A stretch of 64,000 bases of DNA, taken from sequence record PQ850618.1. One strand, written 5' to 3'. The notes under the pieces are model-generated. The model searched no databases. It had not been told where the DNA came from and worked only from the letters and a program-made list of their open reading frames with translations. Made by a program: the position numbers and the translations under genes. Positions 26,101-54,826 of the stretch are shown piece by piece. Source of the stretch: Escherichia phage ManiWeber_Bas99. Each line of letters starts with the position of its first letter. The stretch's first letter is position 1.

Positions 26101-26724
26101 TTATTGTCCTGTAACTTCTCTGATCACACGGTCTTCAAGTTCCAGCTTCTTTACCATTTTGCAGGAGTGCTCATAAGCCTGATCAGTCGATTTGATGAAT
26201 GTGCCGTTGTACATGACACCTTTTCGGTCTTTAATGTCTTCGTAGGCAGCTTGCGCACAGTCGGATAAGCGAAGGCCATAATCATGAGCTACGCCGGAAA
26301 GGTAATCGACTGCGGCCATGATGGTCACGTCAATATCCATGGTCTGATTCTTAGCGATTGCATCACCAAGTCGTCCAAGGGTCTTTGCCAGGCGAAGGAT
26401 AAATGAATGAGGGTGAGCACCTTTATCAGCGCAACCGCCGCCATTAATGTTTTCGATTTCAGTACCGTTTTGCGCTGCCAGGATGGTCAACACAACAAGG
26501 CAATCGCCGATGTCATCCTTAATTGCGGCCTGCAAGTCACAGATGGCCTGCTCTGTATATCCAATTTCAGGGTCAAAGAACACAAGGTCATGTAATTGAT
26601 CAACGTGGTCTGTCAACTCCCCAAACTCGCTAATAAGCTTCGGGTATTGGTCCTTAAGGTCGCAGCCTTGGATGATGTTACGGTCAGAAGCCCACTGGCG
26701 AATGTTTGCATAAATCTGGTTCAT
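26101..26724 (-). CDS. MazG-like nucleoside triphosphate pyrophosphohydrolase
   Basis: 207 aa; EFGELTDH and DIGDCLVVLTILA motifs typical of all-alpha MazG-family NTP-PPases. Confidence 0.5.
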   Translation of the reverse strand: MNQIYANIRQWASDRNIIQGCDLKDQYPKLISEFGELTDHVDQLHDLVFFDPEIGYTEQAICDLQAAIKDDIGDCLVVLTILAAQNGTEIENINGGGCADKGAHPHSFILRLAKTLGRLGDAIAKNQTMDIDVTIMAAVDYLSGVAHDYGLRLSDCAQAAYEDIKDRKGVMYNGTFIKSTDQAYEHSCKMVKKLELEDRVIREVTGQ

Positions 26725-49236: not shown

Positions 49237-49290
49237 AAAAAAGGTGAGCTAAATGCTTGCCTTTTCTTTTATCAATACTTATACTCTTTT
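49237..49290 (+). promoter_or_regulatory. Early promoter copy 1 (conserved upstream block, -35 TTGCCT, -10 TATACT)
   Basis: AAAAAGGTGAGCTAAATGCTTGCC then 17-bp spacer and TATACT, followed by TCATCAAG and an RBS; near-identical block at 50487-50540. Confidence 0.5.
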
Positions 49291-50486: not shown

Positions 50487-50540
50487 TTCAAAAAGGTGAG
50501 CTAAGTGCTTGCCTTTTTATTTGTCTGTATTATACTTAAT
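50487..50540 (+). promoter_or_regulatory. Early promoter copy 2
   Basis: AAAAAGGTGAGCTAAGTGCTTGCC then 16-bp spacer and TATACT, followed by TCATCAAG and RBS AAAGGAGAGG. Confidence 0.5.
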
Positions 50541-50564: not shown

Positions 50565-50870
50565 ATGAGTACCGAAGCGATGAAGAGCAAGTTGTTGAAG
50601 GTTATGCAAGCCGCTGTCGAGTGCGGTGCTATTCAGGAGTTCAAAGAGACGCAAGAAGGCGGTGAGCCAGTATTCTTCTTTAAGAACAAGAAAGGTGCGG
50701 CAGCTGCTGTTATGCTCTTGAAGAACAGCGACATGACCTTTATTCTTTGCGCAGGCGGTTATGACCTTGTTGCCGATGACGCTTACATCACCTGCGCGAC
50801 GGGCCTTAATCCTATGTTAACGTTTGAGCGTCGCGGTATTCGTGTTGCGACATTTGGAGGCGTTTTATGA
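50565..50870 (+). CDS. Hypothetical early protein
   Basis: Internal ATG after AAAGGAGAGG; shares an LKVMQAAVECGAIQEF-like motif with the N-terminus of 51562-52062. Confidence 0.35.
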   Translation: MSTEAMKSKLLKVMQAAVECGAIQEFKETQEGGEPVFFFKNKKGAAAAVMLLKNSDMTFILCAGGYDLVADDAYITCATGLNPMLTFERRGIRVATFGGVL

Positions 50871-51052
50871 GTACCGAAGTCCACAACGCATCAGCACTGG
50901 TAAGCTTTTACCGCAACAAAGGCGTGTCTCTCGTTAAAACGTCGCAAGGCATGCTGTTCTTTGGCACGCGATTCCTTAAAGCTTCGGAGCGTGAAACGCT
51001 GTCCAAGTTTGATCAGAAAACATTACAAGCAGTTTGGAGACGACAACAATGA
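50867..51052 (+). CDS. Hypothetical early protein
   Basis: 61 aa ORF. Confidence 0.3.
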   Translation: MSTEVHNASALVSFYRNKGVSLVKTSQGMLFFGTRFLKASERETLSKFDQKTLQAVWRRQQ

Positions 51053-51345
51053 AACTAAGTTTAGCACAAGTCCAAACATTATACCGTATGGAAGACGGGA
51101 CGCGATATATGTTGCGTGGCGATTGCAAGAAGGCTCATGAGAAGCGCCCATCGCTGTTTCATGACGTCAATGCACCATCAATCCCTGTTTTGTTTCGCCT
51201 TGGGCTTGTTGATTGGGCGGTTCAAGGAGAAAAAGACCCAAGGCTATATTCATTTGTGGTGATGACAAAGAAGGGTCGCGAGGCATTACAAGGAATTAAA
51301 GAGAATATGAGAGGAGGAAAATACTATTATGACATCCAATCTTAA
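51049..51345 (+). CDS. Hypothetical early protein
   Basis: Internal ATG of track ORF 51034-51345. Confidence 0.3.
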   Translation: MKLSLAQVQTLYRMEDGTRYMLRGDCKKAHEKRPSLFHDVNAPSIPVLFRLGLVDWAVQGEKDPRLYSFVVMTKKGREALQGIKENMRGGKYYYDIQS

Positions 51346-51565
51346 AGCCCGTTTATTATTCATCAAGCCGCATGTGCCGTATAAGATTAGTAAGCGCACC
51401 TGGCTTAACATTTACAACCGCAGCGGCGACCGTTGTTTGTACAAGGCAAAGCGGCGCAAGAAGGTATATTTAAAGGCGGTGATGTCCCAGCCCGTCGATG
51501 CATTCAACATCGGCGAAAATGAATTGTCAATCGGCTATCAAATTGAACTAGGAGCAAAGAAATGA
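51329..51565 (+). CDS. Hypothetical early protein
   Basis: 78 aa; RBS GAGGAGG. Confidence 0.3.
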   Translation: MTSNLKARLLFIKPHVPYKISKRTWLNIYNRSGDRCLYKAKRRKKVYLKAVMSQPVDAFNIGENELSIGYQIELGAKK

Positions 51566-52062
51566 AAATCGAACAACTCGAAGCAGTATTGGAAATGGCT
51601 GTAAAGGCAGGCGCAATCAGAAGCTATAGCCGCGAGAAGTCGGATGATGCTGCGCACTTTTGTCGCAACTTCTATATTGTCGGCAACCTTAACGACCACT
51701 ACACCATCGAGTGGTATACTAATATGATGACGCTTAAGTCGCGCACCATGGAGCTTTGGTGCAATGACATTTGCTTATCCAACACTCATCCATCCTACGA
51801 CGTGGCATTGGCATTCTATTACGGAAGTCATCAACCAGTAGCCCACATTGGTGAGAAGCATGAGCACTTGAAGAAGCCAGAAGAATCTCATGAAGGTTGG
51901 ATTGAATGGTCTGGCGGCAAGAATCCGGTGCCTGGTAAAAAGGTCATGTTGATGTGGAGGAATGAAGAGAAGTCTTCTTATTCATCCAATTCAGAAGGAT
52001 GGCTATGGCAGCACAACGGAAGCATTTATGACATTATCGCTTATCGCGTCGTGGAGGAATAA
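51562..52062 (+). CDS. Hypothetical two-domain early protein
   Basis: 166 aa; C-terminal W.EW.GG.NPVPGK.V module shared with 52944-53369. Confidence 0.35.
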   Translation: MKIEQLEAVLEMAVKAGAIRSYSREKSDDAAHFCRNFYIVGNLNDHYTIEWYTNMMTLKSRTMELWCNDICLSNTHPSYDVALAFYYGSHQPVAHIGEKHEHLKKPEESHEGWIEWSGGKNPVPGKKVMLMWRNEEKSSYSSNSEGWLWQHNGSIYDIIAYRVVEE

Positions 52063-52403
52063 TGGAAGAGCAAGAAGGCCGTGAGCTAACGTTCGACGAG
52101 CAAATGCAAGAGCTTCAGCGCACATCGCCGCTGCGCGGTAAGGTTGTTGACATCGAGGCGAGCGAATCCAATCTCACCCAGTGGCGGCTTAAGTGCACCA
52201 GCACAAGCAAGGATATGTTAAGCTTCAAGGTCGGTCAGACCTATTTGCTTTATGAGGCAAAAGGACTTATTATTGATGGAAGGCAAATTGTCTTCACGGT
52301 AGTCAGCGGAATGCGTTGGTTTGTGAAGCGTGATGTCGAGGGCCGTGACATGTTTGTCGCAGGCTTTCCAGAAACAAGATTCCAATTGGAGAAGGTTAAA
52401 TGA
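52062..52403 (+). CDS. Hypothetical early protein
   Basis: 113 aa ORF. Confidence 0.3.
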   Translation: MEEQEGRELTFDEQMQELQRTSPLRGKVVDIEASESNLTQWRLKCTSTSKDMLSFKVGQTYLLYEAKGLIIDGRQIVFTVVSGMRWFVKRDVEGRDMFVAGFPETRFQLEKVK

Positions 52404-52732
52404 AATTGAAATGGTATGTGGACCCTGAGCCGACAGGCTCATACAGGTCATTCCAACGTCGCGGCTGGCCGATTTGTTACAGCGGCAATCCCGATAAAGA
52501 AGACTGCGAGGTGCTTGCCGCGATAGTAAGTCTTAATCATGACGGCTATGAAGGCCACTACGCGAGAGCAACCAACCTTCGTCTCAAGGTGCGCATCCAT
52601 TTCAAGGTCGCAGGCGAGGACCGCACCGGACTCTCCAAGGAAGAGTTCAGCAGCATTGCCGAAGCAAAGGCATGGCTCAAGGCGTTCTACAAGAACAATC
52701 CTAAATTTTATCCAACTAAGGGTGCATTATGA
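52400..52732 (+). CDS. Hypothetical early protein
   Basis: 110 aa ORF. Confidence 0.3.
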   Translation: MKLKWYVDPEPTGSYRSFQRRGWPICYSGNPDKEDCEVLAAIVSLNHDGYEGHYARATNLRLKVRIHFKVAGEDRTGLSKEEFSSIAEAKAWLKAFYKNNPKFYPTKGAL

Positions 52733-52947
52733 CCGATAATCAATACGCAGTCGGGCAACGTGACATCGAGCAACTCGACGAGGGCGGCTATTATACGCGC
52801 CACATCTATGCCATGACTCATGAAGGACTTTACAGCAAGTCGGACATCGCCGCTGAACTGGCCCATCGTGACTTGCAAATTGACCTTCTCAAGATAGAAA
52901 TTCAAAACTTACGCAACACCCTGTTAAACACCTGGAGCTTAAAATGA
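52729..52947 (+). CDS. Hypothetical early protein
   Basis: 72 aa ORF. Confidence 0.3.
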   Translation: MTDNQYAVGQRDIEQLDEGGYYTRHIYAMTHEGLYSKSDIAAELAHRDLQIDLLKIEIQNLRNTLLNTWSLK

Positions 52948-53369
52948 TACAGCGTTACGACCTGACATATGACGTGGCATCAGACGATTTCGCCGTCACT
53001 CCCGTTCCAGAAAGTCATGAAGGACGTTTTGTTGCATATGAGGACTATGAATCACTACTCAAGCTTAATGAGTCGCTAACAAAAGAGATTGAGCAATACC
53101 GCGAGCGCATCAAAGCCGCTGAAGATGTTATCAAGCTTTTTAGCGAGGCTGTTGAGAAATACAAGGAGCGAAACGTACCGATTAAGGAGGAAGCGTGGAC
53201 CGTGTGGTTTGGTGGCGTGAATCCGGTGCCTGGGAAGATGGTTGAGTTTGAATTACTCAACGGTTATAAGTCAAAAGGTGCTGTTCCTTCGGATAGTTTG
53301 ACATGGGATAAAGTCACAAGCCCGACTGGTGCAAAGATTGTTGCTTATCGGGTCGTTAAGGAGGGGTGA
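52944..53369 (+). CDS. Hypothetical two-domain early protein
   Basis: 141 aa; C-terminal WTVWFGGVNPVPGKMV...IVAYRVVKEG module shared with 51562-52062. Confidence 0.35.
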   Translation: MIQRYDLTYDVASDDFAVTPVPESHEGRFVAYEDYESLLKLNESLTKEIEQYRERIKAAEDVIKLFSEAVEKYKERNVPIKEEAWTVWFGGVNPVPGKMVEFELLNGYKSKGAVPSDSLTWDKVTSPTGAKIVAYRVVKEG

Positions 53370-53818
53370 TGGGTAACAAGCTTATCGCCGCTGGTTGGGC
53401 CATACCGAAGTGGGCTCATCGTGCGCACTACTTTGATGAAGGAGAAGTGCAAAGCCTTTGCGGTCGCGCAACGTATTTCGGTGATGAGCGCGTCAGCGGC
53501 GATTACATTGACTCGCTTTTAGGTAAAGGTGATTGCAAGAAATGTCAGGATATATTAAGAGATATTCTGACGCAAAAAGGATTGCTTGAGCTTGATGAGT
53601 CGGAGGAAGTAATAGAGCTTAAGCTTGAAGCCAATCACCTTATTAATATGTTCAAGAATTATTACTTAACGAATATGCGCTCAAAGATGCGTGAGGAAGT
53701 AATAAAAGAGGTGCTCACTTACAATCCGTTAAGGATGAATAAAACTAAACTGAAGAAGTTTAATGCAATGGTAAGAAAGGAATTTAGACGGCTTGGAGTG
53801 AAGAATTTTATATTTTAA
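53366..53818 (+). CDS. Hypothetical early protein
   Basis: 150 aa; last gene of the + early operon. Confidence 0.3.
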   Translation: MMGNKLIAAGWAIPKWAHRAHYFDEGEVQSLCGRATYFGDERVSGDYIDSLLGKGDCKKCQDILRDILTQKGLLELDESEEVIELKLEANHLINMFKNYYLTNMRSKMREEVIKEVLTYNPLRMNKTKLKKFNAMVRKEFRRLGVKNFIF

Positions 53819-53833
53819 TTATGATTAATGTTA

Positions 53834-53860
53834 AGAGGGCCAATCGGCCCTTTTTATTTG
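53834..53860 (+). terminator. Rho-independent terminator ending the early operon
   Basis: AGGGCCAATCGGCCCTTTTTATTTG: 6-bp stem, 4-nt loop, T-run. Confidence 0.6.
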
Positions 53861-54685: not shown

Positions 54686-54826
54686 CCACGCACCACGGTC
54701 CGTTATCCATTCAGCAATATGATTTGTGTACGTTTATAGCCATAATGAACATCAATCTGCACTTGAATATAATGTTCATCCATTGTATAATTCACACTAT
54801 TAATTTGCACTATGGGATTTTGCACT

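Follow-up and report, generated by a model that had tools for sequence, protein, structure and literature searches.

Two small genes with a common ending

Why should two small phage genes that begin quite differently end in the same short module, and what might that module do? The question is raised by a stretch of 64,000 nucleotides (hereafter the window) from Escherichia phage ManiWeber_Bas99 (PQ850618.1), a virulent E. coli myophage of the Wifcevirus type. Within it, gene A (51562-52062, plus strand, 166 amino acids) and gene B (52944-53369, plus strand, 141 amino acids) had been proposed, in an earlier note made from the sequence alone, to share a carboxy-terminal module behind unrelated amino termini through domain shuffling; pairwise alignment and structure prediction were named there as checks, and both have been carried out.

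By BLASTP, residues 110-166 of gene A align with residues 82-140 of gene B at 25 identities in 59 positions (42%), a significant similarity (E=3e-10), and outside the module the two proteins align nowhere. The module copy of gene A comprises residues 110-166 and the stop codon (51889-52062, plus strand; hidden Markov model (HMM) E=1.6e-37), and that of gene B, assigned to allele cluster B4, comprises residues 82-141 and the stop codon (53187-53369, plus strand). Both match an HMM of the two module sequences at E<=1e-37, and a six-frame scan of the entire window finds no third copy, the next best match having an E value of about 1. The likeness extends to the DNA: the 15-nucleotide run GAATCCGGTGCCTGG, which codes for NPVPG, is identical in the gene A module (51921-51935, plus strand) and the gene B module (53219-53233, plus strand), and has exactly these two matches in the window, where none is expected by chance. 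That the resemblance is a chance or low-complexity match, a notion for which only the shortness of the module speaks, can be dismissed with near certainty, being refuted by the pairwise E value, by the 1,541 homologous clusters and by the confident common fold that are described below.

The regions upstream of the module are of different kinds. Residues 1-104 of gene A (51562-51873, plus strand) correspond to phrog_21861 (PHROG match 1.3e-52 over a 104-position profile), and since a family of exactly 104 positions matches exactly this part, gene A is a fusion. In gene B, the module is preceded (52944-53186, plus strand) by an amino-terminal segment of about 35 residues (type N1) and a helical segment, residues ~36-80 (allele CC-A). 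The latter has a heptad-like sequence with weak matches to coiled-coil families and is probably a coiled coil.

A further link, between the amino terminus of gene A and that of gp50565 (50565-50870, plus strand, 101 amino acids) through an AV.CGAI-type motif, stands less firmly. The letters are present at the same amino-terminal position (MAVKAGAIRSY in gene A; AAVECGAIQEF, containing AVECGAI, in gp50565) and are conserved within each family, but homology is marginal. BLASTP gives no alignment of the two proteins at E<=100, and jackhmmer across Wifcevirus open reading frames (ORFs) leaves the two families unlinked even at E<=10. A Smith-Waterman score of 38 compares with 22.7+/-3.8 for shuffled sequences (7 of 2000 shuffles reach it), and hhalign of the family alignments yields 33% probability (P=4.5e-4) over 29 columns. 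The link is suggestive and unproven. For gp50565 itself there is no Pfam, PHROG or NCBIfam match.

A widespread module with a predicted autonomous fold

When 1.84 billion representative proteins were searched exhaustively with HMMER, using the two window modules as query and clustering at 50% identity, 1,541 members of the family were recovered at E<=1e-3, of which 93 also pass E<=1e-10; most come from phages and metagenomes. The proteins that carry the module extend from a stand-alone form of 57 amino acids to more than 1,000 amino acids, the stand-alone forms measuring 57-70, and among the best 150 the module is present once in 71, twice in 57, three times in 15 and four times in 5. It is found alone, in tandem arrays of two to four, or attached to the front or the back of many unrelated partners. 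Two large members (P0016, 915 amino acids; P0019, 1031 amino acids) carry three carboxy-terminal modules together with a long conserved amino-terminal region that contains an enzyme-like motif, ERDGSLSDDYGFEVVT, and has no Pfam match.

The family signature is W-x2-W-x-GG-x-x-P-V-P-G, followed by V-x-V, a further W and D-I-[IV]-A-Y-R. In an alignment of 120 sequences, W5, W8, G10, G11, P14, V20, W41, I50, Y53 and R54 (gene A module numbering) are invariant or at least 90% conserved, and all are present in both window copies. The stretch between V20 and I50, by contrast, displays little conservation save for W41.

Pfam, NCBIfam and PDB sequence searches with the module were all negative, and we found no paper that prints its signature or describes it. 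Four PHROG families (9174, 26870, 16943 and 11995, all of "unknown function") match both window proteins through the module (E from 2.4e-12 to 3.5e-3). These are clusters of whole proteins in which the module lies at the amino terminus, in the middle or at the carboxy terminus depending on the family, and not one of the four gives the domain a definition or a name. Several other candidates were set aside: P0034, with MucBP-like KNPVPGK repeats, and P0037, with FG-GAP-like repeats, were excluded as apparent false positives; weak matches to Tudor_Coilin and DUF6991 were not reproduced across family members; and the PF26207 match of P0321 does not belong to the module, since P0322 has that same module but no PF26207 match. 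A contig scan with the narrow pattern WxGG[EK]NPVP returned only four loci, a count that reflects the pattern more than true rarity.

Structure prediction gave a confident result for the isolated module. AlphaFold2, run on the gene A copy, models it as a small beta fold (predicted local distance difference test (pLDDT) score of 94.2; predicted template modeling score of 0.79), with a short strand at residues 6-7 and strands at 19-24 and 50-55 arranged around a long loop, these three being the only main strands that DSSP assigns. The same fold is found in 31 phage proteins of BFVD at E<1e-3, with template modeling (TM) scores that reach 0.8-0.94. Together with the natural stand-alone proteins of 57-70 amino acids, which also support autonomous folding, the model predicts that these roughly 57 residues fold as a domain of their own. 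A Foldseek search against the PDB returned no significant match, the best being an LSm domain (E=0.31, TM 0.31). The single-sequence model of full-length gene A is poor (pLDDT 42.8) and uninformative on its amino-terminal domain.

Module exchange among Wifcevirus phages

The firmest result of the analysis is the behavior of the module within the genus. Genes A and B are syntenic in 14 relatives and, in all the Wifcevirus relatives examined, are annotated as coding sequences in the same places; most Wifcevirus genomes keep two module copies. Clustered at 90% identity, the sequences recovered by searching make up 122 clusters of gene B and 55 of gene A, almost all of which stem from contigs of about 68 kb. 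Some contigs of this Wifcevirus length that carry the two genes (proteins P0164, P0171, P0173, P0293, P0297 and P0307; ~68 kb) appear at NCBI within assemblies of Escherichia coli or Salmonella enterica, which suggests phage carry-over or a carrier state in the sequenced isolates.

In gene A, the amino-terminal domain is almost invariant among relatives and the module differs sharply from phage to phage. Gene B is a three-part mosaic, assembled from at least three amino-terminal types (N1, N2 and N3), two helical or coiled-coil alleles (A and B) and eight module clusters. These parts occur in 30 distinct combinations among 124 clusters, and modules B4, B7 and B8 are found with all four pairings of N1 or N2 with CC-A or CC-B. 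Seven gene B proteins have two modules in tandem. Longer gene B proteins (190-231 amino acids) occur in phage kaset (L010, 3633-4301), P0005 and P0028, where an internal duplication or insertion repeats EDYAALEAKY, the start of the helical segment.

At 70% identity, the 178 Wifcevirus modules form 17 clusters. From one cluster to another, the core (NPVPG to DIIAYR) averages 29% identity and the edges 69%; the hypervariable stretch spans some 25 residues, from strand 2 to the last strand, and is bounded by edges that are conserved in protein and partly in DNA. Alleles A10-A13, B3 and B6 share 43-60% identity across the two loci, whereas the same gene A alleles share only ~24% with other gene A alleles. 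This closer kinship of A10-A13 with gene B alleles is consistent with exchange between loci.

Recombination between the two copies

Rearrangements that reveal the mechanism are preserved in two relatives. In phage ECML-117 (L009, 3001-3513), gene A ends in a chimeric module that runs from the gene A edge to NPVPGK and continues with a gene B-type core and the ending VVKEG, with the junction at NPVPGK|MVEY. The ortholog of gp53366 (53366-53818, plus strand, 150 amino acids, phrog_2358), the gene downstream of gene B in the window, follows gene A directly, and orthologs of 52062-53186 are deleted. In the window, this interval includes the three small genes between A and B (52062-52403, 52400-52732 and 52729-52947, all plus strand). 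The chimeric module and the adjoining gp53366 ortholog thus indicate that recombination between the two copies removed the first part of gene B along with the three genes that separate it from gene A. The GAATCCGGTGCCTGG run lies at the same place as the junction and is probably where the crossover took place.

In a 67,257-bp relative (L053, 2501-2713; Logan SRR25399866), the genes between A and B are partly deleted, and what remains of the gp52400 ortholog, its first six codons, is fused to the gene B module, so that a stand-alone module of 70 amino acids results. In these deletion variants gp53366 still adjoins the module. As read from the Wifcevirus genomes, recombination at the module edges is shown to swap cores, to duplicate or remove the module, and to delete genes between copies. 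Domain shuffling, which the earlier note had proposed, is therefore strongly supported by the many architectures, the reassortment with different amino termini and coiled coils, tandem duplication, loss and deletion fusions.

Partner domains and gene neighbors

Beyond Wifcevirus, a partner recognizable by Pfam is present in about 16 of 148 representative module proteins scanned, and the partners recur: the SaV-like DUF3310 is fused to the module in five proteins, dGTP_diPhyd_N in three, DUF6378 in two and dATP-dGTP_PPHyd in one, and DUF551 forms a separate part of the same protein in two to three. The founder of DUF3310, SaV, is an early toxic protein of a lactococcal phage and renders phages sensitive to the AbiV defense (PMC8306868). 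In long multi-domain phage proteins of several high-GC (guanine-cytosine) IMG/VR contigs (L028, L031, L036, L038 and others), the module, DUF551 and other unassigned segments are joined by low-complexity linkers such as PAASVSMGTSRKASEP and APTAPVEASGSE, and these recurring linkers may themselves be recombination joints.

The genes beside the module gene were surveyed in 28 unrelated IMG/VR phage contigs (same-strand ORFs of at least 70 amino acids). They encode C5 DNA methylases (five), an N6/N4 methylase, Lar restriction-alleviation proteins (two), HNH nucleases, RecT, DnaB, DNA ligase and DUF3310; the neighborhood is a replication, recombination and anti-restriction accessory region.

Such partners raise an alternative that we consider unlikely, namely that the module binds nucleotides or nucleic acids as an accessory domain of MazG-like nucleoside triphosphate (NTP) pyrophosphatases or DNA-metabolism proteins, with a role in substrate selection, regulation or DNA recruitment. 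In Wifcevirus it would then work in trans, perhaps together with the MazG-like enzyme that the phage itself encodes. A Pfam scan finds a MazG-type catalytic domain in neither gene A nor gene B; distant family members have one. The independent and recurrent fusions to four MazG-related Pfam families (DUF3310, dGTP_diPhyd_N, DUF6378 and dATP-dGTP_PPHyd) accord with this idea, as do the proximity of module genes to DNA methylases, RecT, ligase and DnaB, the near invariance of Arg54, the basic residues after NPVPG and the existence of a separate MazG-like pyrophosphatase in Wifcevirus (26101-26724). However, a MazG-like partner is present in only about 11 of the 148 proteins and most partners are unassigned; a ligand that is a common metabolite predicts a conserved pocket rather than a core of 29% identity; and the Foldseek search reveals no likeness to OB, KOW, Tudor or SH3 folds.

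A candidate binding cassette

The reading that we favor is that the module is an exchangeable binding or targeting cassette under arms-race pressure, to which we assign a probability of roughly 0.45. It is preferred because the pattern of variation mirrors that of tail-fiber receptor-binding domains, because partners and neighbors are conflict-related, and because the layout of gene B looks like that of lambda Ea22. In such a cassette, the conserved beta scaffold would display the variable loop as a binding surface, and that surface would direct the attached part of the protein toward a cellular or phage target. The attached part would be an Ea22-like oligomerizing coiled coil in gene B, an alpha/beta domain in gene A, and a MazG-like or SaV-like domain elsewhere. 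The diversity of alleles would, on this view, stem from an arms race between phage and host immunity, in which the module either tracks variable targets or escapes recognition.

The earlier note had associated such reuse with a common host partner. A shared host target for both genes can only be inferred, and a single common partner sits uneasily with the ~29% core identity, which points instead to variable targets or to escape from recognition. In a broader form of the cassette reading, conceivable but in our judgment doubtful, the module would be a widespread and hitherto unrecognized intracellular specificity cassette: a conserved mini-scaffold whose hypervariable loop recognizes or evades host immunity or takeover targets, and whose edges act as recombination joints that re-arm effector or oligomerization domains, making it a cytoplasmic counterpart of tail-fiber domain swapping.

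Several considerations weigh against the binding cassette. A binding partner, ligand or phenotype is known for no family member. The invariant tryptophan, tyrosine, glycine and proline residues probably have structural roles, so that a conserved functional site cannot be named, and the treatment of the variable loop as a surface draws on the DSSP string of the model and on conservation only. The module is dispensable in gene A, given that phage AV128 encodes the amino-terminal domain by itself (108 amino acids) and that the gene A modules of P0314 and P0315 have a frameshift inside the GGxNPVPG codons. The terms early and host-takeover, which the earlier note applied to these genes, are assumptions for which the evidence is positional only. 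Finally, the hypervariability of the core could be explained by the import of divergent alleles under relaxed constraint, with no need for selection.

This last possibility underlies a second alternative, in which the module would be a structural add-on, neutral or of slight benefit, with no specific target, its diversity arising from recombination with a large phage gene pool under relaxed constraint. The dispensability of the module in some phages is in keeping with this, and so is the divergence of its alleles, which at 20-30% identity are too distant to have arisen in place and were hence imported; mosaicism is, moreover, common in small accessory phage genes (PMC10834534, for Ea22). We nevertheless hold it to be improbable, as about ten positions remain strictly conserved despite great differences in host and GC content, the fold is predicted with confidence, two copies are retained in most Wifcevirus genomes, and tandem amplification in many proteins indicates purifying selection on function.

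The same losses can be viewed in yet another way. The module might chiefly be something that host immunity recognizes, through abortive-infection or other sensors as for the early protein SaV, so that turnover, losses and frameshifts represent escape and its own job is generic, such as stabilizing or oligomerizing the partner. The hypervariable core on a conserved scaffold, the repeated loss or disruption of the module in gene A, and the fusion to SaV-like DUF3310, whose founder triggers AbiV (PMC8306868), could all be understood in this manner, as could the ability of Wifcevirus phages to lyse many strains without forming plaques on them (PMC11990801). We rate this explanation low as well: no defense system is known to sense the module, and its persistence in at least 1,541 clusters, together with the multi-copy arrays, argues for a positive function over a liability.

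Comparison with known systems

The module fits among the portable small domains of mosaic phage accessory proteins, and of these DUF551 (PF04448) is its closest functional analog. DUF551, a domain of enterobacterial phages and prophages, is known from YfdS, from the carboxy-terminal domain of Ea22 variant V2 and from the carboxy terminus of DUF550/MazZ-type dATP/dGTP pyrophosphohydrolases. Like the module, it is a domain of about 60 amino acids that is restricted to phages and prophages and has no assigned function, and the two share the same slots, being fused to MazG-like NTP pyrophosphatases and occupying the carboxy terminus of Ea22-type coiled-coil proteins (PMC10834534). They even coexist in single polypeptides (P0051, P0135, P0146, L028 and L038). 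Homology between them, which these common slots had suggested, was not supported: there is no Pfam DUF551 match at E<=1 on the window proteins or on 120 isolated modules, and hhalign of the module alignment with DUF551 gives a probability of 0.4%, although the small six-sequence DUF551 profile makes this a weak test. Their signatures differ as well (THWMPLP in DUF551, DI[IV]AYR in the module).

Gene B, with its probable coiled coil, in turn looks like lambda Ea22/Ead, which has a short variable amino terminus, a central helical or coiled-coil region and a small carboxy-terminal domain that varies among phages, in a mosaic arrangement (PMC10834534). It is not itself recognizable as Ead/Ea22 (PF13935, IPR025153), as neither the window allele nor five other alleles match Ead_Ea22 at E<=1. 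In addition, the carboxy-terminal domain of lambda Ea22 is a dimeric alpha/beta fold that is not among the Foldseek PDB matches of the module. The lifestyles differ too, as Ea22 has been described as pro-lysogenic and Wifcevirus phages are virulent. For Ea22, likewise, a host ligand is presumed (PMC10834534).

The parallel with tail-fiber receptor-binding domains, in which a hypervariable tip on a conserved shaft and joint is exchanged horizontally, lies in conserved junctions, a hypervariable business end and reassortment among close relatives, a pattern described for the T-shaped fiber of Wifcevirus phages (PMC11990801). Unlike tail fibers, the module belongs to small non-structural proteins of the replication and accessory arm, and its fold and sequence are unrelated to theirs. 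Small beta-barrels (SH3-like, Tudor, LSm and KOW) are similar to the module in size, in being beta-rich and in having an aromatic-rich core, and the Tudor_Coilin matches in Pfam are sub-threshold; there is no significant structural match to any of them, the LSm domain being the best.

Genomic setting

Over its first 25 kb the window shares 96-97% identity with phages Bas100 and Bas98; the part that holds genes A and B is 96% identical to Bas98 across 81% of its length. In Bas98, the rightward arm begins at a divergent point beside a Dda-like helicase and carries two genes for primases and then about 35 small genes, every one of which is annotated as a hypothetical protein. The stand-alone MazG-like pyrophosphatase gene of the window (26101-26724, minus strand), so annotated in Bas98, adjoins an ATP-dependent DNA ligase gene.

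Judged from consensus scans and from the sequence itself, genes A and B look to be within one putative transcription unit of ~50.5-53.9 kb. At its putative start is a promoter-like site, TTGCCT-N16-TATACT (50509-50536, plus strand), which is overlapped by a terminator-like hairpin (50490-50518, plus strand); both module genes lie inside the unit. Its putative end is a strong intrinsic-terminator-like hairpin, GGGCC-aatc-GGCCC followed by five T residues (53835-53858, plus strand). Terminators are annotated in phage WFH at positions equivalent to the hairpins near 50490 and 53835. The second hairpin comes directly after the gene for the 150-residue protein, and beyond it are about 900 bp of AT-rich sequence with few ORFs and several promoter-like sites (54746-54791).

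The upstream hairpin element has a near-identical 26-nucleotide copy at 49240-49265, where none is expected by chance. In this pair (49240-49285 and 50492-50536), the 26-nucleotide element AAAGGTGAGCTAA[A/G]TGCTTGCCTTTT in each case overlaps a promoter-like TTGCCT-N16/17-TATACT. By their sequence, the repeated pairs look like terminator/promoter cassettes that would split the small-gene arm into units.

Implications

Most small accessory and presumed early phage genes have no assigned function. Against this background, the analysis defines a family of domains, with at least 1,541 clusters at 50% identity, that lies outside curated libraries and has a confident predicted fold. The module recurs beside MazG-like, SaV-like and DUF551 domains, which are themselves poorly understood. 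Within Wifcevirus there is a natural series of allele swaps, and since members of the genus, the BASEL phages Bas98-101, can now be propagated on derivatives of E. coli K-12, the function of the module is directly testable. If it is neutral, the module would still offer a clean case of single-domain recombination, including deletions mediated by repeated domains; if the variable loop sets the target, the family would provide a handle on the conflict between phage and host.

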